The translations under genes were made by a program, and so were the position numbers. A model generated the notes under the pieces. The model saw nothing but the letters and a program-made list of their open reading frames with translations. It had not been told where the DNA came from and did no database searches. 64,000 nt of DNA, from the NCBI GenBank assembly GCA_965203635.1, contig OZ241903.1:2290583-2354582 (forward strand), read 5' to 3'. This DNA is from Candidatus Aldehydirespirator sp. (GTDB lineage: Bacteria > Actinomycetota > Acidimicrobiia > Acidimicrobiales > Aldehydirespiratoraceae). Positions 538 to 56,877 of this stretch are shown here, piece after piece; the stretch's first letter is position 1; every line of letters starts with the position of its first letter.

Positions 538-633
538 GTCTCCCGCTCTTGTTCGCTGCGCTCACGGGCCGCTCGGGCCACGGCCTCGCCCGTATGGCGC
601 CGGATGCGCTCGCCGACCCGCTCGGCCTCTCAG
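538..633 (+). repeat. MIRU-like dispersed intergenic repeat, copy 1 (long form)
   Basis: Core TCCCGCTCTTGTTCGCTGCGCTCACGGGCCGCTCGGGCCACGGCCTCGC, a variable middle, and terminal CCGCTCGGCCTCT. Related copies at 26802, 40771 (reverse), 41617 and 55642. Confidence 0.8.
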
Positions 634-2677: not shown

Positions 2678-3784
2678 ATGAGAGCCGCTTTGCTGACGGA
2701 GCCCGGATCGCTACTCGAGATGGTCGACGATGTCGAGCTGGCCGGGCCCCGATCGGGCGAGGTGTGCGTGGCGATCAGCCACAGCGGCGTCTGCCACAGC
2801 GATCTGACCATCGTCGAGGGGGGATTCCTGTTCCCGGCGGTGCTGGGCCACGAGGCGGCCGGAGTGGTGGCCGCGGTCGGCGCCGGCGTGAGCCACGTCG
2901 CCGAGGGCGACAAGGTGATGCTCACACCGCTGGCGCCGTGCGGGCACTGCGAGGGCTGTGCCCGCCAGCAGGCCAGCCGCTGCCCCCAGGCGATGAGCTT
3001 CGTGGCCGGCACCCGACCTGACGCCACGTCGCCGCTGTCCCGCGGGGGCCGGCTCGTGCACCGGGGTCTGGGCGTGGGCGCTTTCGCGGAGCAAACCGTG
3101 GTCCCGGCCTCGGGCGTGGTCCGCCTGGCCGACGACATCCCCCTCGAAGTGGCCTGCCTGATCGGCTGCGCGGTGCAGACCGGGGTCGGTGCGGTGCTCA
3201 ACACGGCCAAGGTGGAGCGGGGATCCACCGTCGTGGTGACCGGACTCGGCGGGGTCGGCATCTCCGCGGTCCAGGGAGCCCGAATCGCCGGCGCGGCCCG
3301 CATCGTGGCGTCCGACCCGGTGGAGTCCCGCCAGCAGGTCGCCCTGCGCCTCGGGGCCACCGACGCGGTGGGCGGCGACGCTGCCGAGCTGCGAGCCGCG
3401 GTGGCCGAAGCCACCGGGGGCCGGGGCGCGGACTACGCCTTCGAGACCGCCGGCGTGGCCGACCTGGTCAGGCTCGGCCTGGAGGTCACTGGCGCCGGAG
3501 GCACCACCGTGGTGGTAGGCGCGCCCCCACCGGAGCACACCGTCGATATCGGCTCGGTGACCGTCTTCATGATCCAGCAGAAGCGCCTGGTGGGCAGCCT
3601 TCTCGGCGATTGCTGGCCAACCCGCGACATCCCCCGCCTAGTGGGCCTCTGGCAGCGCGGCGACCTAGACCTAGAGTCCATGATCACCCACCGGGTGCCC
3701 CTCGACGGAGTGAACGAGGGCTTCGACCGCCTCCGCTCAGCCGAAGGAGTCCGAACGGTCGTAGAAGTAGCCCAAGAGTCGTAG
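2678..3784 (+). CDS. zinc-dependent alcohol dehydrogenase (MDR superfamily)
   Basis: ATG at 2678 is in frame with the 745-aa track ORF. GVCHSDL, GHEAAGVV and CGHCEGC Zn ligands, plus the GLGGVG Rossmann motif. The upstream part of the track ORF reads through repeats and is not coding. Confidence 0.88.
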   Translation: MRAALLTEPGSLLEMVDDVELAGPRSGEVCVAISHSGVCHSDLTIVEGGFLFPAVLGHEAAGVVAAVGAGVSHVAEGDKVMLTPLAPCGHCEGCARQQASRCPQAMSFVAGTRPDATSPLSRGGRLVHRGLGVGAFAEQTVVPASGVVRLADDIPLEVACLIGCAVQTGVGAVLNTAKVERGSTVVVTGLGGVGISAVQGARIAGAARIVASDPVESRQQVALRLGATDAVGGDAAELRAAVAEATGGRGADYAFETAGVADLVRLGLEVTGAGGTTVVVGAPPPEHTVDIGSVTVFMIQQKRLVGSLLGDCWPTRDIPRLVGLWQRGDLDLESMITHRVPLDGVNEGFDRLRSAEGVRTVVEVAQES

Positions 3785-17577: not shown

Positions 17578-18444
17578 TCAGGCCAGTGAGGCGAAGACGA
17601 TGACGTTCTCCTCGTAGGTCCTCACGCCGAAATCGAAGTCGCCGCCGCAGGTGACCAGCCTGAGCGTCGGCTGTTCGGTGGGTCCGTAGACCGCGTCGGT
17701 GGGGAATTCGTCCTTGTCGTGGCTCTCCAGGAAGTCGACCACGTAGCTGACGGTCGATCCGTCCACCCGGTCGACGTGGATCTCGTCGCCGGCCTTCATG
17801 TACCGCAAGTCGAAGAACACGGCCGGACCTTCCTCCTGGGAGTCCACATGGCCGAGAATCACGGCCGGTCCAGTCTCGCCCGGTTCGGGACCGCCCAGCC
17901 ACCAGCCCGCCTCGTCGGGGTTCTCCGGTATCTCGATCGATCCGTCCTCTTGAAGGCCGAGGGGGATGATCGAGGCCTCCACGCCGAGCCTCGGGATGCG
18001 GATGACGGCGGGGTTGGGCGCCTGCATCCGGGCGTCGTTGACCGCGTCGAGGCTCAAGTGGCCCGCCAGCGGCGAGTAGTCCCACGACGTCCCGGCGGCG
18101 TCGGTGACCGTCGTGGCGGGGGCGAGGGCGGGCTCGGCAACCGAGGCCGCCGGCTCCACCGCGATGAGCGTCGTTCCTGCGCTGGTCGTCGCCGCTTCCG
18201 GGTCCGTCGTCGAGTTCTCCGTCGCCACTGCCGGTGCCTCTGTTGCGGCCGTCGGTGTCGATTCTGGAGCGGCTGTGGCCGGCGGGTCGGCGGCGGTGTC
18301 GCTCGAGGTTGCCGGCGTGGAACTGGCGGGCGCCGGAACCACCACCCGGGCAGGGTCGGAGCTGCAGGACGCGACTGCGGCAGCGGCGATGAGAGCCGCT
18401 GCCGCAGTCCGCAGTCTTGCCGCTGAGGGCCTGGTGTTCGCCAT
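17578..18444 (-). CDS. sortase, class F-like, with lipoprotein-type N-terminus
   Basis: AVILGHVDS (His), LRLVTCGG (Cys) and a C-terminal Arg region. N-terminal AAVASCSS lipobox and a Pro/Thr/Ala-rich linker. Last gene of the minus-strand surface-protein cluster. Confidence 0.85.
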   Translation of the reverse strand: MANTRPSAARLRTAAAALIAAAAVASCSSDPARVVVPAPASSTPATSSDTAADPPATAAPESTPTAATEAPAVATENSTTDPEAATTSAGTTLIAVEPAASVAEPALAPATTVTDAAGTSWDYSPLAGHLSLDAVNDARMQAPNPAVIRIPRLGVEASIIPLGLQEDGSIEIPENPDEAGWWLGGPEPGETGPAVILGHVDSQEEGPAVFFDLRYMKAGDEIHVDRVDGSTVSYVVDFLESHDKDEFPTDAVYGPTEQPTLRLVTCGGDFDFGVRTYEENVIVFASLA

Positions 18445-18475
18445 GAACTCCCGCCCCTCGCGGGTTGGTTGTCTG

Positions 18476-19087
18476 TTAGGCGTGACGCCGGGTGACGAGC
18501 GCAGCCCCGCCGAGCAGGGTCACCGCGGCGATGGTGGCGGCCAGCGGCACGGCGACGCTGTTGCCGTCGGATCCGGCCATGCCGCCGAAGCCCGTCTCGG
18601 CTGCACCCTCGGGAGCCATGTCGTCGCCCATGTCGTCGCCCATGTCGTCGCCCATGTCCTCCGCGATGAAGAGCACTGGAGCAGCGCTGTCCTCAGTGAC
18701 GGCGACATCGCCCGCGCCGAACGCGAAGTTCGCCGGGACATCGTGGGTGATATCGACCGTGAAGGTGCCATCAGCGCCCACCGTGATGGGCGCGCCGAGG
18801 GGTGCGAGGATGCAGTCGGCCTGACCCATGCCCTCCAAAGCGGCCACTATCGCGTCGGTTGACGACGCGGTCGTGAGCTGCTCGCCGGGGACGGTGCAGG
18901 GCACAATGAAGACGGTCAGGCCTGCACTCCAGCCCGATCCGGTGAGCGTGAAGGTGTGGGTCCCCGGTCCGTCCACGGCCGGCGGGTCTGCTGTGAGCAA
19001 CGGCCCGTCCTGAGCCGAGGCCTGGCTGGTCAGCACAAACAGGGCCAACAGGCTGGCCACGGCTGTCAGTGCCACGATTCTCTTCAT
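18476..19087 (-). CDS. secreted surface protein, paralog 1 (predicted sortase substrate)
   Basis: Signal peptide MKRIVALTAVASLLALFVLTSQASAQ and a ~110-aa two-Cys domain (TLTGSGWSAGLTVFIVPC). (DDMG)n stalk, then AAETG-FGGMAGSDGNSVAVP-TM helix-RRHA. Confidence 0.85.
   Translation of the reverse strand: MKRIVALTAVASLLALFVLTSQASAQDGPLLTADPPAVDGPGTHTFTLTGSGWSAGLTVFIVPCTVPGEQLTTASSTDAIVAALEGMGQADCILAPLGAPITVGADGTFTVDITHDVPANFAFGAGDVAVTEDSAAPVLFIAEDMGDDMGDDMGDDMAPEGAAETGFGGMAGSDGNSVAVPLAATIAAVTLLGGAALVTRRHA
18617..18664. repeat. 12-bp tandem repeat encoding (DDMG)n stalk of paralog 1
   Basis: CATGTCGTCGCC x3 plus a degenerate fourth unit. Confidence 0.85.
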
Positions 19088-19135
19088 GTGTTGTGTCCTT
19101 TCGCGGATCCAGCAGATCTACTGCGAGTGCGGCCG

Positions 19136-19141
19136 AGTATA
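19136..19141 (-). promoter_or_regulatory. candidate -10 box (TATACT) for paralog 1
   Basis: CTGAGCATGGGTATACT is conserved upstream of both paralog 1 and paralog 2, about 50 nt before each ATG. No convincing -35. Confidence 0.35.
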
Positions 19142-19174
19142 CCCATGCTCAGACGGCCGGTGTGGGGACGTAAC

Positions 19175-19247
19175 GCGACTGCGGCAGCGACAATGATGCC
19201 GCTGCCGCAGTCCGCAGTCTCTCCGCCTAGGGCCTGGCGTCCGTCAT
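19175..19247 (-). pseudogene. fossil 5' end of the sortase gene (copy A)
   Basis: Aligns with sortase codons 1-25 (18371-18444). Reads ATG ACG GAC GCC AGG CCC TAG, with TAG where the sortase has TCA. Contains the same CTGCGGCAGCG...CGCTGCCGCAG hairpin. Confidence 0.55.
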
Positions 19248-19278
19248 GAACCCCGGCCCCGAGCGGGCTGGTATTTCG

Positions 19279-19869
19279 TCAGGCTTGGCGTCGGGAGACC
19301 AGCACGGCCCCGCCGAGCAGGGTCACCGCGGCGATGGTGGCGGCCAGCGGCACGGCGACGCTGTTGCCGTCGGATCCGGCCATGCCGCCGAAGCCCGTCT
19401 CGGCTGCACCCTCGGGAGCCATGTCGTCACCCATGTCGTCGCCCATGTCGTCCATCGGCGCACCGATGAACACCGGCGCGGCGCCAGACTCTGTCTGTGC
19501 AGCATCGCCGGCAACCCAGACGAAGTTCTGTCCGACTGTCGCCGAGACCGTGGCGCTGAAGGTGCCGTCGGCGCCGACTACCGCGGGCGTCAGGCTGCCG
19601 AGATCGCAATCGGTCTGGCCGATTCGCCCAATGGCCTCCGCGGCGTTCTCAGGGGTCATCGGGTCGCCGGGCGCGGTGCACGGCAGCACGAACAGCGCAA
19701 GACCGGCAGTGAACCCGGATCCGCTGACGGTGAAGGTGTAGTCGCCCTCGGCCGGCACGTAGGCGGGGTCCGCCGTCAGGGACGGCCCGCCCTGAGCATG
19801 GGCCTGGCTCGTCAGCACGAGCAGGGCCAGCATGCTCACTGCGGCCGTGAGTGCCATGATTCTCTTCAT
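19279..19869 (-). CDS. secreted surface protein, paralog 2 (predicted sortase substrate)
   Basis: MKRIMALTAAVSMLALLVLTSQAHAQ, then the same two-Cys domain and DDMGDDMGDDM stalk. AAETG-FGGMAGSDGNSVAVP-TM-RRQA. Confidence 0.85.
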   Translation of the reverse strand: MKRIMALTAAVSMLALLVLTSQAHAQGGPSLTADPAYVPAEGDYTFTVSGSGFTAGLALFVLPCTAPGDPMTPENAAEAIGRIGQTDCDLGSLTPAVVGADGTFSATVSATVGQNFVWVAGDAAQTESGAAPVFIGAPMDDMGDDMGDDMAPEGAAETGFGGMAGSDGNSVAVPLAATIAAVTLLGGAVLVSRRQA

Positions 19870-19922
19870 CTGTGTTCCGTCCTTTCGCGGACTCGGCGGA
19901 AGGTCTCCCGCATGTGCGTGAG

Positions 19923-19928
19923 AGTATA
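19923..19928 (-). promoter_or_regulatory. candidate -10 box (TATACT) for paralog 2
   Basis: Same conserved CTGAGCATGGGTATACT block as upstream of paralog 1. Confidence 0.35.
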
Positions 19929-19960
19929 CCCATGCTCAGGCGGCGGATAATGCAGGTAGC

Positions 19961-20034
19961 GCGACTGCGGCAGCGGCCACTAGTGCCGCTGCCGCAGTCC
20001 GCAGTCTCTCCGCCTAGGGCTTGGTGTCCGTCAC
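19961..20034 (-). pseudogene. fossil 5' end of the sortase gene (copy B)
   Basis: GTG ACG GAC ACC AAG CCC TAG. It has the same premature TAG at codon 7 as copy A. A 13-bp perfect hairpin stem lies at 19965-19997. Confidence 0.55.
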
Positions 20035-20065
20035 GAACTCCTGCCCCGGGCGGGCTGGTATTTCG

Positions 20066-21088
20066 TTAGGCGTTGCGTCGGGAGACCAGTACGGCGCCGC
20101 CGAGCAGCGTCACTGCGGCGATGGTGGCGGCCAGCGGGACGGCCAGGCTGTTGCCGTCGGATCCGGCTGTGCCGCCGAAGCCCGTAGCAGCTCCGCCCTC
20201 GGGAACCATGTCGTCACCCATGTCCTCGACCATGTCGTCGTCGGCCATGTCGTCGGTCATGTCGTCGGTCATGTCGTCGGTCATGTCGTCGTCGGTCATG
20301 TCGTCGGTCATGTCGTCGTCGGTCATGTCGTCGGTCATGTCGTCGTCGGCCATGTCGTCAGTCATGTCGTCGTCGGCCATGTCGTCGTCGGCCACGTCCT
20401 CTCCTTCAGCGGGGGCCTCTTCCTCGGCAGGAGCCTCTTCCTCGGCAGGAGCCTCTTCCTCGGCAGGAGCCTCTTCCTCGGCGGGGGCCTCTTCCTCGGC
20501 GGGGGCCTCTTCCTCGGCGGGCGCTTCTTCTTCGGCCGGTGCTTCTTCTTCAGCGGGCGCTTCTTCTTCGGCCGGTGCTTCTTCTTCAGCGGGAGCTTCT
20601 TCTTCGGCCGGTGCTTCTTCTTCAGCGGGGGCCTCTTCCTCGGCAGGAGCCTCCTCTTCGGCCGGTGCTTCCTCTTCGACCATCGGCTCTCCGACCTTGA
20701 TGACGGCAGTGGCGCCCGACTGGGGAGCCACGGTGAACACCAATATCACGAGCCCTTCGGCCGGAACGTCGACGGTTATCGACGTCGAGAATGACCCTCC
20801 CGGAGCTGAGATCGTTGAGCCCATGTCCGTCAAGAGGTTGGGGCAGTTGGTGGTGGTCGCCGTTTGATCGATAACGTCGGGCACGACGCCTCCGAAGCCA
20901 GTGCACGCGGTGATCGCCGGGTTTGCTGGGAAGCCGCTTCCAGAGACCGTGACCGTGTGGGTGCCTGCTGAGCTGACATACTCCGGGTCTATCGTCACCG
21001 TCTGCACCGATTGCGCGCTCGCCTGGGTTGTCAGCGCGAACAGGGCCAACAGGCTCACTGTGGCCGTCAGTGCCATGATCTTCTTCAT
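20066..21088 (-). CDS. secreted surface protein, paralog 3, with expanded acidic repeat stalk (predicted sortase substrate)
   Basis: Start set at internal ATG 21088 (MKKIMALTATVSLLALFALTTQASAQ) by homology with paralogs 1 and 2. About 15 EEEAPA units, then a long DDM(T/A/G) tract, then GAATG-FGGTAGSDGNSLAVP-TM-RRNA. Confidence 0.85.
   Translation of the reverse strand: MKKIMALTATVSLLALFALTTQASAQSVQTVTIDPEYVSSAGTHTVTVSGSGFPANPAITACTGFGGVVPDVIDQTATTTNCPNLLTDMGSTISAPGGSFSTSITVDVPAEGLVILVFTVAPQSGATAVIKVGEPMVEEEAPAEEEAPAEEEAPAEEEAPAEEEAPAEEEAPAEEEAPAEEEAPAEEEAPAEEEAPAEEEAPAEEEAPAEEEAPAEEEAPAEEEAPAEGEDVADDDMADDDMTDDMADDDMTDDMTDDDMTDDMTDDDMTDDMTDDMTDDMADDDMVEDMGDDMVPEGGAATGFGGTAGSDGNSLAVPLAATIAAVTLLGGAVLVSRRNA
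20207..20400. repeat. 12/15-bp tandem repeats encoding the Asp/Met-rich tract (DDMT/DDDMT/DDMA)
   Basis: Runs of CATGTCGTCGGT / CATGTCGTCGTCGGT on the plus strand. Confidence 0.9.
20404..20680. repeat. 18-bp tandem repeat, about 15 units, encoding (EEEAPA)n
   Basis: GGCCTCTTCCTCGGCRGG / GCTTCTTCTTCGGCCGGT variants repeated head to tail. Confidence 0.9.
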
Positions 21089-26739: not shown

Positions 26740-26801
26740 CGTCGGGCACGTTACCTACAGCCTCGACGGACAGGTGAAGGCCCCGCCGCGCGATGCTGCC
26801 A

Positions 26802-26939
26802 CTCCCGCTCCTGTTCGCTTCGCTCACGGGCCGCTCGGGCCTGCCTGCCGCTCTTGTTCGCTGCGCTCACGGGCCGCTGGGCCCTGGGGCCTCGCCCGTA
26901 TGAGCCGGATCGGCCCGCCAATTCGCTCGGCCTCTGTAG
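26802..26939 (+). repeat. MIRU-like dispersed repeat, copy 2 (1.5 tandem units)
   Basis: Half unit at 26802-26841, then a full long-form unit at 26848-26939 ending CGCTCGGCCTCTGTAG. Confidence 0.8.
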
Positions 26940-26950
26940 CCTCGGCGGCG

Positions 26951-27418
26951 ATGAGTGACGCCGGCGTTCCCCTCCTGCGGCACGGTCCGCCCGAGACGGT
27001 CCTGGCCCCGGAGCCAGACGAAGTTCGGGCCGCGCTGGCCGCGGCCGCGGCGAGCGACGATCCGGTGGCCGCCGTAAGCGCGGTCTGCGAGCGCGGGCCG
27101 GTCAGCCTGGAGGCCTGGGCCTCACTCGGCGAGACCATGGAGTCGACGGGCGCGCCACCTGCTCTGGCCTACGCCGCGTTCCGCACCGGCTACCACCGCG
27201 GCCTGGACCGGCTCAGAGCCAGCGGCTGGCGCGGCTCCGGCTACGTGCGCTGGAAGTATCCGTCGAACCGCGGCTTCCTGCGCGCCCTCAGCGGGCTGCA
27301 GCGTGTCGCCGGGCGGATCGGAGAGACCGACGAGGCCGAGCGGTGCGCATTGTTCCTGGTCCAGCTCGACCCGGAGTGGCCTCACAATCACCCTGACAGC
27401 CCGGGGCCGCGTGGGTAG
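26951..27418 (+). CDS. conserved actinobacterial protein (resembles the DUF3151 family from memory)
   Basis: AYAAFRTGYHRGLDRLRASGWRGSGYVRW..NRGFLRAL. ATG 26951 is in frame with the longer track ORF, whose upstream part runs through the repeat. Confidence 0.65.
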   Translation: MSDAGVPLLRHGPPETVLAPEPDEVRAALAAAAASDDPVAAVSAVCERGPVSLEAWASLGETMESTGAPPALAYAAFRTGYHRGLDRLRASGWRGSGYVRWKYPSNRGFLRALSGLQRVAGRIGETDEAERCALFLVQLDPEWPHNHPDSPGPRG

Positions 27419-38428: not shown

Positions 38429-40108
38429 ATGGCGAGGATGCGTCGAATCCTGGTCTCGATCCTGCTGGCCGCGCTGGCGACCACCGCGGTCGGGTCGTAT
38501 GTCCAGGCGCGGCGCATCAACGCCGACTCCGATCCGGGCTGGGTCTCCGACACCGGCCCTCCGGAGATGGTGGTGTCCACGCCGCTGCTGAACGTCCGCC
38601 GGACGCCGTCGTGGCTGTCGGCTCCGGTCACCGAGGCCCGCCTGTTCGAGCGGCTCTCCGGCGTGGCCGAGCTGCCCAGCGCTCCGCCGCAGACGTGTCT
38701 GGCCGTCTACCGCAACGGTGAGCCCATCATGAGCGAGCAGGCTGAGGTGCCGCTGGTGCCGTCCTCGCTGATGAAGATCGTCACCGCAGCTGTGATCCTC
38801 GAGACCGCGGGACCCGCGGCCACCTTCACCACCGAGGCCTTCGTGCGCACGGCGGACCTCAGCGCGGCTGCCGGCGGTGTGCTCACCGGCGACGTCTATC
38901 TGGTCGGGCGGGGCGATCCCGTCCTGTCGACGCTCTCCTACATAAGGCGCTTCCCCGAGCCCATGGTCCACACCGACTTCACGGACTTGGCCGTGCAGGC
39001 CGCGGCAAGCCTGCGCGATCGGGGCATCTCTGTGGTGGAGGGCAGCGTCCTCGCCGACGAGTCGCGCTTCCCCGAAGCGGAGCGGGACTACTCCGGCCAA
39101 CGCGTCCAGCCCGACGACCGGCCGATCTGGAAGCAGTCCTACGTGAACAGCAACCAGGTCGGTCCCCTGTCCGCGCTGCTGCTCAACGACGGGTACGTGT
39201 CCTTCGCGGCGTCGGCGGACTACGCCAGCCGGCGGGAGAACGTGCGGGCCGTCGATCCCGCTCTCCACGCCGCGCAGGTGTTGGACGGATTGATCGAGGC
39301 CCGCGGCATCCGTGTCGCGGCGGAGGCCAGCAAGGGCACCGCGCCGCCGCTGTCTGAGCTTCACTCGCTGGGCAGCGTCGAGTCGCCGCCCATGTCCGAG
39401 ATTGTGGCTCGGATGCTGCGCTACTCGGACAACACCACTGCCGAGATGCTCCTGAAGGACATCGGCAGACGCTTCTCGGGCTCGGCCCGCGCCGAAGCGG
39501 TGACCGACGTCCACGACGTGCTGGAGAGACTGCTGGACGTCCCTACCGAAGGGATCGTCATTGTCGACGGCTCGGGACTCTCGCTGCACAATCTGCTGAC
39601 CTGTGACCTGATCGCCAGACTGTTGCTGCGGGCCGGCCCCGACTCGCCTCTGGTGAGCGGCCTGGCCGTGGTGGGGGAGAGCGGCACCCTGCGGGACTGC
39701 GAGGCGGAGCAACCCTCCGATGAGGCCGTCATCGACGCACCCGGTCTTGCCGACGGTGCGGTGGACAACCCGGTGTGGGCCAAGAGCGGGACTCTCAACG
39801 ATGTCTCGGCCCTCGCGGGGGTCACCGTGGCTCGCAACGGCGACGTGCTCACGTTCGCGCTGATCTCCAACCGCGAAGGTCTCATCTTCGATCTCGGCTT
39901 CTGCAACGACTTGCAGCGCGGCCTCATCGCGGCTGCGGCCGGCCACCCGTATGGACCGTCCTCGGCCGACGCCCTGCTCCATCCGCAGCCCGCGAGGGCG
40001 CCGGTAGTAGTCCCCGATCCCGAGTCAGGCAACGGCCAAGTAGACCCCGATCCCGAATCAGGCAACGGCCAAGTAGACCCCGATCCCGAGTCAGGCGACG
40101 GCCAATAG
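38429..40108 (+). CDS. dacB: D-alanyl-D-alanine carboxypeptidase/endopeptidase (PBP4, S13 family)
   Basis: Signal/anchor MARMRRILVSILLAALATTAV, SxxK as PSSLMK, YSDN (SxN) and KSGT (KTG-like). The C-terminus carries three 33-bp tandem units. Confidence 0.88.
   Translation: MARMRRILVSILLAALATTAVGSYVQARRINADSDPGWVSDTGPPEMVVSTPLLNVRRTPSWLSAPVTEARLFERLSGVAELPSAPPQTCLAVYRNGEPIMSEQAEVPLVPSSLMKIVTAAVILETAGPAATFTTEAFVRTADLSAAAGGVLTGDVYLVGRGDPVLSTLSYIRRFPEPMVHTDFTDLAVQAAASLRDRGISVVEGSVLADESRFPEAERDYSGQRVQPDDRPIWKQSYVNSNQVGPLSALLLNDGYVSFAASADYASRRENVRAVDPALHAAQVLDGLIEARGIRVAAEASKGTAPPLSELHSLGSVESPPMSEIVARMLRYSDNTTAEMLLKDIGRRFSGSARAEAVTDVHDVLERLLDVPTEGIVIVDGSGLSLHNLLTCDLIARLLLRAGPDSPLVSGLAVVGESGTLRDCEAEQPSDEAVIDAPGLADGAVDNPVWAKSGTLNDVSALAGVTVARNGDVLTFALISNREGLIFDLGFCNDLQRGLIAAAAGHPYGPSSADALLHPQPARAPVVVPDPESGNGQVDPDPESGNGQVDPDPESGDGQ
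40012..40108. repeat. 33-bp tandem repeat x3 encoding DPDPESGNGQV at the dacB C-terminus
   Basis: CCCCGATCCCGAGTCAGGCAACGGCCAAGTAGA at 40012, 40045 and 40078 (the last unit is cut by the stop). Confidence 0.9.
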
Positions 40109-40122
40109 GAGCGAGGGCCACC

Positions 40123-40770
40123 GTGGCTACGCCGATGTTCGCGCTCCAGTCGGTGCTGCTCCCCGGATCGCCGCTGCCGCTGCACGTCTTCGAGCCTCGC
40201 TATGTGGCCATGCTCGACACCGTCATCTCGACGGACGCCGAAATGGGCGTCGTGCTGATCGAGCGGGGCCGCGAGGTCGGGGGCGGGGATGTGCGGTGCG
40301 ATGTGGCCACCATGGCCCGCGTCGTGGAGGCCCGGGAGTTGGCCGACGGCAGGCTGCTGGTGATGGCGCTGGGAGTCCGTCGGATCCGGGTGCGGCGGTG
40401 GCTGCCCGACGATCCATACCCCTGCGCCGAGACTGAGGACTGGCCAGATGAGCCCGAAGGTGAGTCGCCGCCGAGCGGCGAGCAGCTGCGGCAGTTGGGC
40501 GCACTGGTCTCGGAGGCACGCAGCCTGGCCCGGCGTCTCGAGATCGCGCCCGGGCCGCAGCACGAGGCAGCTGAAGTGGTTCCCGTGGATGTGGGCCGCG
40601 ACGCTTCCCAGGCCTCCTACCGGGCCGCGGCTCTTGCTCCACTCGGTCCACTCGACCGCTACGAGGTGCTCTGCACGCCGGGCGCCGGCCGGCGGCTCTC
40701 CGTCGCGCACCGTGCGGTGGCCGATGCCGTCGACCTGTTGAGAGCCCGGATCGAGCTGGGCGGCGGGTAG
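40123..40770 (+). CDS. LON N-terminal (substrate-binding) domain protein
   Basis: MFALQSVLLPGSPLPLHVFEPRY..GVVLI. Confidence 0.8.
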   Translation: MATPMFALQSVLLPGSPLPLHVFEPRYVAMLDTVISTDAEMGVVLIERGREVGGGDVRCDVATMARVVEARELADGRLLVMALGVRRIRVRRWLPDDPYPCAETEDWPDEPEGESPPSGEQLRQLGALVSEARSLARRLEIAPGPQHEAAEVVPVDVGRDASQASYRAAALAPLGPLDRYEVLCTPGAGRRLSVAHRAVADAVDLLRARIELGGG

Positions 40771-40816
40771 CGTGAGGGCCTGAGTGGCCCGTGAGCGAAG
40801 CGAACAAGAGCGGGCA
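40771..40816 (-). repeat. MIRU-like dispersed repeat, copy 3 (core only, inverted orientation)
   Basis: The reverse complement reads CCCGCTCTTGTTCGCTTCGCTCACGGGCCACTCAGGCCCTCAC. Confidence 0.75.
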
Positions 40817-40848
40817 ACAAGCTCACTGAAGGGCCGGAGGGACCAGGT

Positions 40849-41360: not shown

Positions 41361-41597
41361 ATGGGGCTGGTCGGCGGGAAGGCAGCCGGAGCCTGGATCA
41401 CCCGCCAGGCCGTGCGACGCGGCCTGCTCGGCAGTTCCCGGCTGTGGTTCGCGGCATTCGTAGCGCAGGGCGCGTTCAAGCTGGCGCGCCGGGCGATCGG
41501 ATCCCGCGAGCCCACGACAGTGTTGGAGGAACGGCTCGAGCCGGGTGCCGGCATCGAGATCCGGCACCTCAAGAGCACCCGCGGGAAGGGTGAGTGA
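41361..41597 (+). CDS. small hypothetical protein
   Basis: 78-aa ORF, third gene of the small co-directional trio. Confidence 0.45.
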   Translation: MGLVGGKAAGAWITRQAVRRGLLGSSRLWFAAFVAQGAFKLARRAIGSREPTTVLEERLEPGAGIEIRHLKSTRGKGE

Positions 41598-41616
41598 CTC
41601 GCGATGAAGCAAACCG

Positions 41617-41684
41617 TCTCCCGCTCCTGTTCGCTGCGCTCACGGGCCGCTCGGGCCACGGCCTCGCTTCGCTCGGCCTCTAAG
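41617..41684 (+). repeat. MIRU-like dispersed repeat, copy 4 (short form)
   Basis: TCTCCCGCTCCTGTTCGCTGCGCTCACGGGCCGCTCGGGCCACGGCCTCGCTTCGCTCGGCCTCTAAG. Confidence 0.8.
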
Positions 41685-41728
41685 CGGGACCGCGGCTGAG
41701 CCGCCACAGGCCGAGCCAGGCTGGTCCG

Positions 41729-54121: not shown

Positions 54122-55639
54122 ATGGCTGTCCCCAAGACGCTCGGCCTTGAGACCGAGTACGGCATCGTCCACCGGGGTGCTCCGGAGCCCAACCCGATCT
54201 CGGCCTCCTCGCTGCTGATCAACGCCTACCTGATCGCCACCCATCAGGCACCCGAGCCGGGCCGGGCCGCGGTGGGCTGGGACTTCACCGACGAGACACC
54301 CGGCAACGATGCCCGGGGCGGCGCTCCCGCGGGCTCGCTCGCGCCCGAGATCGAGACCCACCTGGTGAACGCGGTGCTCACCAACGGCGCCCGCTACTAC
54401 GTCGACCACGCCCATCCCGAGCTGTCCACCCCCGAGTGCGCCGACGCCCGCTCGGTGGTCGTCTACGACCGGGCTGCCGAGCTGATCGCGGCCCGCTCGA
54501 TGGAGTCGGCCCGGATGCTGCTGCCACCGGGCGAGGAGATCGTGGTCTACAAGAACAACTCCGACGGCAAGGGCAACAGCTACGGCTGCCACGAGAACTA
54601 CCTGGTGAGCCGGGCTGTGCCGTTCTCCCGCATCGTCACCCACGCCACCGCGCACTTCGTGACCCGCCAGATCTTCTGCGGTGCCGGCAAGATGGGCAGC
54701 GAGACCTCCGGCATGCGCCTGGACGAGGCCGGCTACCAGATCACCCAGCGGGCCGACTTCATCGAGGAGGAGGTCGGCCTGGAGACCACCCTCAAGCGTC
54801 CCATCGTCAACACCCGCGACGAGCCCCACGCCGACGCGGCCAAGTACCGGCGCCTGCACGTGATCGTGGGCGACGCCAACATGTCGCAGGTGGCGACGTT
54901 CCTCAAGGTCGGCACCACTGCGCTGATCATGGCCCTCACCGAGGACGACGCCGTGCCCCGCGAGCTGCGCTTCGCCGCGCCGGTGGCGGCGCTTCGCCAG
55001 GTGAGCCGCGACCTGTCGCTGCGAGAGCCGCTGGAACTCGTCGACGGCTCCACGATCACCGCCCTGGGCGCGCAGTGGGAGCTGCTGGCCGCGGCCCGCG
55101 CCTATGTGGAGACGAGGGGCGCGGACGCGGTGGGCGGCGACGTCGCCCACCAGGTCCTGGATCGCTGGGAGGCCGTGCTCGGCGGACTGGAGCGCGACCC
55201 GATGAGTCTCGCCGCGCAGATCGACTGGGTGGCCAAGCTCCGGTTGCTGGAGGGCTTCCGGTCCCGCCACGGCCTCGACTGGGAGGACGCCCGCCTCAGG
55301 GCCCTCGACATCCAGTACCACGACCTGCGCCCCACGAAGTCGCTGGCGGCCAGGGCGGGGCTGGAGACCCTGGTGGACGAGGCCGAGGCCGAGCTGGCCA
55401 TGACCGAGCCGCCGCCCGACACCCGCGCCTTCTTCAGGGGGCGCTGCCTGCAACGCTTCGCGGCGGAGGTGGTGGCGGCCAACTGGGACTCGATCGTCTT
55501 CGACGTGGGCGAGGGCTCGCTGCGACGGGTCTCCATGACCGAGCCGACGCGGGGAACCGTCGCCCACGTGGGCACGATGTTCGACGAATGCGGCTCCGCG
55601 ATCGACCTGCTTCGCCGCTTGGGCGCTGCTGGCGCGTGA
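54122..55639 (+). CDS. dop: Pup deamidase/depupylase
   Basis: GLETEYG N-terminus. 505 aa, which is Dop-sized rather than PafA-sized. Located immediately upstream of pup. Confidence 0.88.
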   Translation: MAVPKTLGLETEYGIVHRGAPEPNPISASSLLINAYLIATHQAPEPGRAAVGWDFTDETPGNDARGGAPAGSLAPEIETHLVNAVLTNGARYYVDHAHPELSTPECADARSVVVYDRAAELIAARSMESARMLLPPGEEIVVYKNNSDGKGNSYGCHENYLVSRAVPFSRIVTHATAHFVTRQIFCGAGKMGSETSGMRLDEAGYQITQRADFIEEEVGLETTLKRPIVNTRDEPHADAAKYRRLHVIVGDANMSQVATFLKVGTTALIMALTEDDAVPRELRFAAPVAALRQVSRDLSLREPLELVDGSTITALGAQWELLAAARAYVETRGADAVGGDVAHQVLDRWEAVLGGLERDPMSLAAQIDWVAKLRLLEGFRSRHGLDWEDARLRALDIQYHDLRPTKSLAARAGLETLVDEAEAELAMTEPPPDTRAFFRGRCLQRFAAEVVAANWDSIVFDVGEGSLRRVSMTEPTRGTVAHVGTMFDECGSAIDLLRRLGAAGA

Positions 55640-55641
55640 AA

Positions 55642-55740
55642 TCCCGCTCTTGTTCGCTGCGCTCACGGGCCGCTCGGGCCACGGCCTCGCTCAGCTTCTC
55701 GGCGTCCCGGGTAAGTGCGGCCCACCCGCTCGGCCTCTAG
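55642..55740 (+). repeat. MIRU-like dispersed repeat, copy 5 (long form), between dop and pup
   Basis: TCCCGCTCTTGTTCGCTGCGCTCACGGGCCGCTCGGGCCACGGCCTCGC ... CCGCTCGGCCTCTAG. Confidence 0.85.
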
Positions 55741-55787
55741 CCTCCGTTGTGGAAAACTGAGGTAGGCACCGAGCCGGGAGGAATCCA

Positions 55788-55982
55788 GTGGCCGAACGAG
55801 AGCAGATCCGCAAGCCGGCGCCGGCGAACCGCGAACAGTCCGTGGAGGAGGCGCCGCCCGCGTCCGAGCGGGGCTCGGACATCAAGGCCCAGCTCGACGA
55901 CCTGCTCGACGAGATCGACGAGGTGCTCGAGACCAACGCCGAGGACTTCGTGAAGAGCTACATCCAAAAGGGCGGCGAGTGA
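55788..55982 (+). CDS. pup: prokaryotic ubiquitin-like protein Pup, Glu-terminated (GGE)
   Basis: 64 aa, GTG start after [36 protein letters not shown]. Confidence 0.93.
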
Positions 55983-56046
55983 GCCTGCGCGCCAGGATCG
56001 TGCGTTTCTCGGGCAACCGGAGGCGCTGCGGCCCGGGGGCCGGCGA

Positions 56047-56877
56047 GTGAGCCTGCCCCGCTTCGGACCGCACGACGATCCCGGCCCCGACTTCGCCGCG
56101 CTCCTGCGCCTCACCGGCGCCGGTGGAGAGGCCGGCCCGCTCGGCACGGCCGCCCAGCGCCCGCAGGCGGCGCCGGACATCCCCCACGGCACGACCTGCG
56201 TGGCCGTGCGCTACGACTCGGGGGTGGTCCTGGCCGGAGACCGGCGAGCAACCGCGGGGCATCTGATCAGCAACCACCGCATCGAGAAGGTGTTCCCCGC
56301 CGACCGTCATTCCGGCGTGGCCATCGCCGGTGCAGCCGGGCCCTCGGCCGAGATGGTGAGGCTGTTCCAGCTCCAGCTCGAGCACTACGAGAAGGTGGAG
56401 GGCACGCCGATCAGCCTGGAGGGCAAGGCCAACCAGCTCGGCCAGATGGTGAGGGCCAACCTGCCCTCCGCCATGCAGGGACTGGTGGTGGTGCCGATCT
56501 TCGCGGGCTTCGACACGGCGGTCTCCAGGGGCCGGATATTCGAGTACGACGTCACCGGCGGGCGGTACGAGGAGCGGGACCACGCGGCCACCGGCTCGGG
56601 CTCGCTGCACGCCGACACCGTGGTGAAGCTGGGCTTCCGCCCGTCGATGGCGAGAGCGGCGGCTGTTGACCTGGTGCTGGACGCGCTGTACGTGGCCTCC
56701 GACGCGGACTCCGCCACCGGCGGACCCGACCCGGTGCGCGACGTGTTCCCCGTGGTGGCCGTGATCGACGCCGGCGGCTACCAGCGCTTGGACGACGCCG
56801 AGTTGCGCCGCCGAACCGAGCGGCTGCTGCGCCGCCACCGCAGCCGGCGCGAGGGAGACAAGGGGGATGCATCATGA
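56047..56877 (+). CDS. prcB: 20S proteasome beta subunit
   Basis: Propeptide ending ..DIPHG, followed by the catalytic TTCVAVRY. Confidence 0.93.
   Translation: MSLPRFGPHDDPGPDFAALLRLTGAGGEAGPLGTAAQRPQAAPDIPHGTTCVAVRYDSGVVLAGDRRATAGHLISNHRIEKVFPADRHSGVAIAGAAGPSAEMVRLFQLQLEHYEKVEGTPISLEGKANQLGQMVRANLPSAMQGLVVVPIFAGFDTAVSRGRIFEYDVTGGRYEERDHAATGSGSLHADTVVKLGFRPSMARAAAVDLVLDALYVASDADSATGGPDPVRDVFPVVAVIDAGGYQRLDDAELRRRTERLLRRHRSRREGDKGDAS

Follow-up and report, generated by a model that had tools for sequence, protein, structure and literature searches.

In the 64,000-nucleotide stretch of the Candidatus Aldehydirespirator sp. contig OZ241903.1 analysed here (the window; 68.8% G+C), a family of short repeats lies dispersed among ordinary housekeeping genes, one copy standing between dop and pup. 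A first-pass annotation had reported this family at five loci, with a variable middle, and likened it to the mycobacterial interspersed repetitive units (MIRUs). The members share a 49-nt core, TTCCCGCTCTTGTTCGCTGCGCTCACGGGCCGCTCGGGCCACGGCCTCGC, which is exact at 541-589 and 55642-55690 and carries one mismatch at 41619-41667; no occurrence was seen in 100 dinucleotide-preserving shuffles. Repeat finding added three more diverged cores, two in tandem (26803 and 26846) and one inverted (40777-40819), giving six core copies across five loci where chance predicts none. Four of the loci end in the terminus CCGCTCGGCCTCT, which, together with an extra minus-strand match at 27331-27343, occurs five times against 0.62 expected. 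Profile hidden Markov models (HMMs) built from the wider family recovered these five loci from the window and no others, so that the dispersed family is real; its variable middle, too, is borne out, the middles across the family falling into types designated A, B, C and D. The reported extents held as to the five loci and fell short for two copies, on which the HMMs revealed an additional 5' arm (matches spanning 26756-26937 and 41571-41684).

The window copies range from 49 to 180 nt, and only the second and fourth retain a 5' arm. Copy 1 (538-630, plus strand) consists of the core at 541-589, an A-type middle and a 3' arm with its GGCCTC end at 629, the 5' arm being unrecognisable. It fills the gap between two convergent genes, one for a tRNA methyltransferase-like protein (stop TAG, 505-507) and a minus-strand gene for an enoyl-CoA hydratase, whose reverse-complement stop TCA (630-632) the element abuts; orthologues of the hydratase at L036 and L032 (L numbers denote the loci used for comparison) have the same TCAGTAGTGCC ending and lack the element. 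Copy 2 (26756-26935, plus strand) is full-length and aligns with the family profile from position 5 onwards: its 5' arm (26756-26801) is followed by two tandem cores, beginning at 26803 and 26846, and then by an A-type middle and a 3' arm. The flanking genes are divergent, encoding an 87-aa membrane protein (minus strand) and a DUF3151 protein (plus strand). L056, a syntenic locus, lacks the copy and has an empty site with the sequence GGTACCGG, TAG, CCTCAGCGGCGATGAGT. Copy 3 (40777-40825, minus strand) is a reversed, core-only fragment that begins 6 nt past the TAG of a LON-substrate-binding-domain gene (40135-40770) and is not present in the relatives L122, L123 and L125. Copy 4 (41573-41681, plus strand) is a full-length short form with the 5' arm GAGCACCCGCGGGAAGGGTGAG..., the core and then TTCGCTCGGCCTCT. 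Copy 5 (55640-55737, plus strand) follows directly on the dop stop and comprises the core at 55642-55690, a B-type middle and a 3' arm with its GGCCTC end at 55737, without a 5' arm. Four of the five copies are lacked by relatives whose neighbouring proteins are 86-97% identical (L056 having been matched through syntenic DNA). To judge from these alignments, the window copies are lineage-specific insertions, present or absent between close relatives at precisely delimited sites that lie at or near stop codons, four of the five probably decayed or rearranged since.

The copy between dop and pup provides the clearest comparison of filled and empty sites. It is absent in all six relatives compared, whose Dop proteins are 91-97% identical (L118-L121, L126 and L127) and whose dop-pup spacer measures 33-74 nt; this insertion is very recent. 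Empty sites read GCG, TAG, CCTCTCC (L126) and GCG, TAA, CCTCCT (L118), and the window reads GCG, TGA, AA, then TCCCGCTC...GGCCTC, then TAG and CCTCCG, from which it follows that the element landed on the dop stop codon. The TAG at 55738-55740 (plus strand), with native CCTCC downstream, is thus the native stop or target triplet and doubles as the stop of a 34-codon open reading frame (ORF) that runs through the element. The Dop C-terminus, ...GAAGA-stop, is unchanged, and alignments show the pup ribosome-binding site GGGAGGAA and GTG start untouched; since both the end of the dop product and the ribosome-binding site of pup are intact, a strong effect of the insertion on the Pup system is unlikely. 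The suggestion that the copy could affect dop-pup coupling accordingly found no support, as the two genes are never coupled by overlap, the six relatives having spacers of their own and pup keeping its own GGGAGGAA.

Two further observations concern this locus. Between pup (55788-55982) and prcB (56047-56877) lies a separate 68-bp insertion, flanked by the 15-nt direct repeat GGCGAGTGAGCCTGC (55974-55988 and 56042-56056), which duplicates the overlap (GTGA) of pup stop and prcB start and thereby creates a 23-codon ORF (55979-56050) starting on the pup TGA and ending on the prcB GTG, a true relay arrangement. Four relatives lack it, pup and prcB overlapping directly, and L127 (Dop 95% identical) shares it with the ORF still open; no further copy of the 53-nt insert was found in the relatives' loci examined. 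Secondly, Pup itself (end at 55968-55982) terminates in ...KGGE-stop, with Glu rather than Gln at its C-terminus, so that deamidation by Dop would presumably not be needed before ligation.

Copy 4 rewrote the end of a gene. The orthologous gene encodes 75 aa ending in ...HLKRDRG-stop, and copy 4 was inserted 13 nt before that stop; the window ORF now ends in ...HLKSTRGKGE-stop (78 aa), with its tail and TGA (41595-41597) read from the 5' arm of the element. The old gene end, GGGACCGCGGCTGA, survives just downstream of copy 4: the relic of the 75-aa gene's 3' end (GCGGGACCGCGGCTGA, 41684-41700, plus strand), displaced by the insertion, aligns to ...AAGAGGGACCGCGGCTGA of L123. The description of all copies as intergenic is therefore mostly right and fails at 41573, where the element supplies the last eight codons and the stop of the 78-aa ORF. 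Copy 4 is absent in L122, L124 and L125, and in L123 the same gene has received an insertion of independent origin, reversed in orientation and 8 nt past the stop.

Beyond the window, a scan covering one genome for each species located a 21-mer of the core in at least 117 8-kb blocks, drawn from about 50 species genomes of Acidimicrobiia. Every block labelled at class level came from Acidimicrobiia metagenome-assembled genomes, including, among the matches listed, Ca. Aldehydirespirator, Ca. Poriferisodalis and 'Microthrixaceae'. Ca. Aldehydirespirator and Ca. Poriferisodalis belong to different families, and both have been described as sponge-associated clades (PMC11706023). Syntenic Ca. Aldehydirespirator loci align with the window at 81-91% nucleotide identity. 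Given its presence in other Acidimicrobiia genomes, the element is neither confined to the window nor mycobacterial. Exact cores recur at a density of about one extra per 67 kb beyond the anchoring copy, the window having six cores in 64 kb. A phage origin was considered and dropped because the viral contigs scanned contained no copies of the core.

About 177 copies were detected overall, and 137 were lined up to establish the anatomy of the element. Well-preserved copies measure 110-150 nt and full copies 110-181 nt. In its full form the element reads, between two T[T/A]A triplets, GAGcgtGCGCGGATAGGTGAGAGCC..GTCGCGtcGCAGCGGTGTCA, then TTCCCGCTCTTGTTCGCT[G/T]CGCTCACGGGCCGCTCGGGCCACGGCCTCGC, a variable middle of type A, B, C or D (about 5-50 nt), and ..CCTATCCGCTCGGCCTC. 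It is bounded by imperfect inverted ends of about 22 nt, GAGGCCnnGCGGATAGG...CCTATCCGCTCGGCCTC, the consensus 5' end GAGcgtGCGCGGATAGGTGAG matching the reverse complement of the 3' end, GAGGCCGAGCGGATAGGCGAG. When 5' ends were aligned with reverse-complemented 3' ends, the mean score was 4.5, as against -0.16 (standard deviation 2.7) for shuffled arms, and 11 of 41 full copies scored above the 99th percentile of shuffles; the ends are nearly perfect in L058 and in L019, the latter folding as a single long hairpin (z = -3.2 and -4.4). Identical 3-mers flank eight of the 41 full copies where 3.3 are expected (P = 0.01), indicating a 3-bp target duplication. The duplicated triplets are mostly TTA or TAA (L196, for example, has TTA at both sides) and also include CGA, CGG and TAC, which means that composition alone does not account for the result. 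Longer duplications of variable length (13 nt at L105, 15 nt at pup-prcB) were entertained as signs of another insertion mechanism and set aside, the 3-bp duplication being statistically supported and shared with IS5 elements.

A metagenome scan for the end sequence GAGGCCRMGCGGATAGG and a subsequent screen for inverted pairs turned up at least 13 elements, 957-1008 bp in length, that carry the same ends. They are bounded by GAGGCCGCGCGGATAGG...CCTATCCGC[G/T]..GCCTC; nine of them have identical TAA, TTA or TGA triplets at their two flanks, and within every element there is a single open frame of about 230-330 codons. One such frame, scanned against NCBIfam, matched NF033580 'IS5 family transposase' with 151.7 bits (cut-off 110), and the two scanned against Pfam contain DUF4096 and DDE_Tnp_1. 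The core is absent from these insertion sequence (IS) copies; profile matches in the metagenome set were limited to L196 and L240, both copies of the short repeat. Other short elements of 91-287 nt combine the same IS5-type ends and TNA duplications with unrelated interiors (L035, 7594-7691; also L141, L142, L157, L204, L209, L212 and L242). The occurrence of several interiors with the same ends, in different bacteria, suggests that one transposase family services several passengers.

Because the same ends and duplication bound the ~1-kb IS5-family transposase elements, we conclude that the repeat family is very probably an IS5-type MITE (miniature inverted-repeat transposable element), that is, a short non-coding passenger with IS5-family inverted ends. 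It falls within the general definition of a MITE (PMC3184786). The copies stay below the bound of about 400 bp set for such elements and contain no transposase gene, and their reading frames match no protein family. Under this reading, a non-coding passenger of 110-150 nt would be moved in trans by an IS5-family DDE transposase. TNA targets in a 69% G+C genome would sit mainly at stop codons and their reverse complements, and insertions would hence pile up right after genes, duplicating or replacing the stop and sometimes rewriting the last few codons. Subsequent decay would take the form of loss of the 5' arm, deletion between internal CCGCTC motifs and tandem duplication of a 45-nt core.

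Several features sit less comfortably with the MITE interpretation. Many full copies lack an intact duplication. Both arms are kept in only 41 of the 137 copies, the rest comprising the core with the 3' end, the core alone, or deletions between the internal CCGCTC motifs, and standard cut-and-paste transposition does not explain core-only and core-plus-3'-end copies unless they are decay products. The central core is conserved more than the ends, whereas in a typical MITE the ends are best conserved. Neither the 64-kb window nor some 0.9 Mb of Acidimicrobiia loci, searched by the end motif and for multi-copy segments of at least 400 bp, yielded an IS5 copy bounded by these ends. Finally, the native flanks at three empty sites resemble the element end (AGGCCGAGC, CTAGAGGCC and TAGCCTC); such flanks could represent a preference of the transposase for certain targets, footprints of old date, or insertion assisted by homology. 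Native sequence of this kind (TAGCCTC, CTAGAGGCC, ACAGGCCGAGCC) was noted at L056 (~3640), at L122/L123 (~1560/1330) and in the window at 41700-41720.

Insertion contexts were assigned with a simple codon-usage gene caller, orientation being expressed relative to the plus orientation of the first-pass annotation. Both neighbouring genes lie on the opposite strand for 54 copies and on the same strand for 24, a bias of 2.25:1 (binomial P = 0.0009); 33 copies have mixed neighbours, and a further 11 overlap the 3' end of a gene, all of them antisense (P = 0.001). In roughly half of 69 cases with an opposite-strand gene end, the GGCCTC end falls between -2 and +6 nt from the opposite-strand stop codon, and in the remaining contexts the 5' end abuts same-strand stops. 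Both ends thus tend to touch stop codons, as expected from a TNA target in G+C-rich DNA. The proposal that four of the five window copies are co-oriented with their flanking genes was loosely put, copy 1 lying between convergent and copy 2 between divergent genes. The expectation of a predominantly intergenic family with an orientation bias is realised in the larger sample, but the direction is the reverse of that in the window (54 anti-oriented as against 24 co-oriented copies), so that the orientation of four of the five window copies represents the family minority. The orientation bias is shown and has no explanation in the MITE interpretation.

The MIRU comparison had rested in part on two small ORFs in the window, and both are present as described: one at 55636-55740 (plus strand, 34 codons) opens with a GTG overlapping the dop TGA, and the other at 41594-41683 (plus strand, 29 codons) opens with a GTG overlapping the TGA of the 78-aa ORF, its start and the stop it overlaps both being element-derived. 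Each ends at what had been taken for the terminal stop of the element, and the family also includes tandem core arrays with units of about 45 nt (four units at L106, 3.5 at L079, and two each at L092, L084 and the window positions 26803/26846). For MIRUs, too, overlaps between ORFs and adjacent genes, sites both empty and filled, and short direct repeats have been described (PMC3184786). These likenesses would accommodate an intra-operon repeat serving as the carrier of relay mini-ORFs, through which neighbouring genes would be coupled in translation. The family at large argues otherwise. Among the 119 copies used for frame counts, each of the three forward frames is stop-free in 79-88%, and only 26% have a stop triplet right after GGCCTC; the conserved terminus, seen at four window loci, is therefore not generally followed by a stop, and what had appeared to be the element's own terminal stop is the native stop or target triplet. 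ORFs that start on an upstream stop and run through the element are equally frequent in both orientations (eight of 38 forward, 21%; 15 of 68 reverse, 22%), and the majority orientation has stops in its frames. Because the window mini-ORFs end 47 nt short of the pup start and 54 nt short of the start of a ThiS-like gene, they do not relay to the next gene, and the dop-pup insertion, as seen above, is absent in every one of the six close relatives. Eight genes in other genomes end inside the element; genes that do so use all three core frames (...PWPERPVSAANKSG.., ...ARAARERSEQERE-stop and ...GRGPSGP-stop).

On these sequence comparisons the relay reading is already largely refuted at the level of the family, and we regard it as very improbable. 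Both window mini-ORFs are judged incidental, and such ORFs are not a family trait and appear to be by-products. They would arise passively on an IS5-type MITE from the near absence of stops in the forward frames, the stop-like target triplet at its end, and a G before TGA that yields GTG. The likeness to MIRUs survives in size, intergenic position, occasional tandem arrays and occasional ORF overlaps, and fails in the host, here Acidimicrobiia, and in ORF overlap as a trait of the family. As for tandem copies as a possible variable-number-of-tandem-repeats feature, core arrays of two to four units exist across family loci and in the window.

The evolution of the core is the feature that fits least readily with an inert passenger. 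Three insertions were inherited by two species, with both flanks aligning, and in these we compared divergence with the 21-mer search word excluded to avoid ascertainment. The core outside the 21-mer differs at 5 of 85 positions (5.9%), as against 71 of 251 (28%) in the 5' arm plus middle and 214 of 895 (24%) in flanking DNA (Fisher P = 5e-6 for core versus arms and middle, P = 3e-5 for core versus flanks). In a fourth orthologous pair, L004/L051, the core is disrupted, with 12 of 28 positions differing, so the constraint is not absolute; and the exact 21-mer is missing in 37 of the ~177 detected copies. Selection on a function of the core and gene conversion are both possible causes of its slow change.

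In the first of these, the core would itself be a functional cis-element, a protein-binding DNA site or an mRNA motif of 3'-untranslated or intercistronic position, hitch-hiking on the MITE and selected by the host; this would add to the MITE origin rather than replace it. Besides the low divergence at shared insertions, the presence of the same core with different arms in two bacterial families is consistent with such a role, as are the orientation bias of 54:24 and the recurrence of CGCT(C) within the core at roughly helical spacing, read directly from the sequence. Against it stand the disrupted core of L004/L051, the copies without an exact 21-mer, the restriction of the comparison to three clean orthologous pairs, and a series of negative searches. 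A scan of 55400-56100 for promoters and terminators found nothing. Rfam gave no match at the gathering score over the whole window and, in E-value mode over intact copies and the dop-prcB region, only chance-level hits (E of at least 0.45, 13-16 bits). Folded singly, the window copies did no better than shuffles on either strand (z from -1.05 to +1.15), and the consensus fold of 33 full copies is weak (-14 kcal/mol), with none of its 15 pairs covarying; nor did the 5' arm (CGCAGCG) covary with the G/T polymorphism against the core (CGCTGCG), as judged by eye. The RNA-fold prediction proposed in the first-pass annotation gave no structural signal for the core, and a structured-RNA reading was dropped on account of the weak consensus fold, the lack of covariation and the absence of an Rfam match. 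We also considered the core as the C-terminus of a transposase (reverse reading ...EAVARAARERSEQERE-stop) and rejected it, a protein search having returned only domainless spurious ORFs of 31-93 aa. On this evidence a functional core seems unlikely. Less probable again, in our estimate, is the more specific proposal that the 49-nt core is a selected module, either a host-protein site or an mRNA signal after stops, that has spread on an IS5-type MITE chassis in two families of sponge symbionts; if true, many operon junctions would have been rewired at once, dop-pup included.

Concerted evolution is the other explanation: gene conversion among tens of dispersed copies may homogenise the core, as the longest shared tract, without any function. 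The many copies per genome, as judged from the density given above, would provide the partners, and the deletions and tandem duplications demonstrably generated by internal CCGCTC repeats show that recombination is active within the family. Conversion within a genome alone, however, does not hold one consensus across two families, for which horizontal exchange or selection is also needed; we consider this account possible but doubtful.

The same folds bear on a repetitive extragenic palindromic (REP) or bacterial interspersed mosaic element (BIME) origin, in which the repeat would be an extragenic palindrome mobilised by a Y1 transposase of the REP-associated tyrosine transposase (RAYT) type. 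Such an origin would suit short, G+C-rich and orientation-biased copies just downstream of genes. The core, however, is not a palindrome, and the element is for this reason not REP-like; folds have z near 0 and a stem of only 4-5 bp, and the long inverted ends are common to DDE IS5 elements and accompanied by a 3-bp duplication. REPs are not known to have either long inverted ends or a 3-bp target duplication. This origin is extremely improbable.

We found no description of these repeats in sponge Acidimicrobiia, and as far as the searchable literature goes the family is previously undescribed; the type of element, a MITE, is already known. For annotation, it constitutes a recognisable block of 50-150 nt at gene ends that gives rise to spurious small ORFs and altered C-termini, as in the 78-aa gene of the window and the eight genes elsewhere that end inside it. 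It is also a clear instance of stop-codon homing by a MITE in a high-GC genome, and its presence or absence and tandem copies could serve as markers when strains of uncultured sponge symbionts are typed. Of its features, the slow-evolving core alone possibly points beyond ordinary selfish DNA.

Other repeats were observed alongside this family. On the reverse strand of L032 (~2800-3140), a second repeat family, similar in character, occurs twice beside the enoyl-CoA hydratase orthologue (...GGTGCTCGCTTGCTCGCACGGGCTTCGCCCTACTCGCTCGCA..CGAGCACCGGCGTCTCCCGCC). Within the window, the interval between genes 1656-2522 and 2690-3784 contains two 55-nt direct repeats (2531-2585 and 2603-2657; 95% identical) that show internal dyad symmetry (GGAATTGGCAGC...GCTGCCAATTC). 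At 18370-20726 (minus-strand genes 18476-21088), three paralogous segments, each about 790 bp long, stand in tandem; long arrays with periods of 12, 15 and 18 nt (GTCGTCGGTCATGTC...) code there, on the minus strand, for acidic repeats rich in Asp, Met and Thr. At 40006-40105, the 3' end of gene 38438-40108 contains three tandem 33-nt units, 94-100% identical.

Among known systems, the family most resembles IS5-derived bacterial MITEs, with which it shares small size, a non-coding sequence, terminal inverted repeats like those of an IS that encodes a transposase, a short target duplication of fixed length, dispersal in many copies, empty and filled sites, long-hairpin potential when intact, and occasional in-frame fusion to gene ends. 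It differs from them in that the central 49-nt passenger core, not the ends, is best conserved, in its tandem core arrays, mostly lost 5' arm and clear orientation bias relative to genes, and in being common to two sponge-associated Acidimicrobiia families. REP/BIME and BOX-type repeats likewise lie just after genes, are modular with a repeatable middle, and are candidates for post-transcriptional roles (in part after PMC3184786); here the core is non-palindromic, there is no structural signal, and the signatures of mobilisation are those of a DDE IS5 transposase. MIRUs (Supply et al. 1997, summarised in PMC3184786), compared by description, are units of 40-100 nt, intergenic within operons and sometimes tandem, with empty and filled sites, short direct repeats at their flanks, imperfect inverted ends and some ORFs touching neighbouring genes, all of which recur here; the differences lie in the host class, in mini-ORF overlap not being a property of the present family, and in the IS5-type ends and 3-bp TNA duplication. 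As MIRUs have themselves been called 'possible MITE-like' in review (PMC3184786), the analogy drawn with them was a reasonable one.

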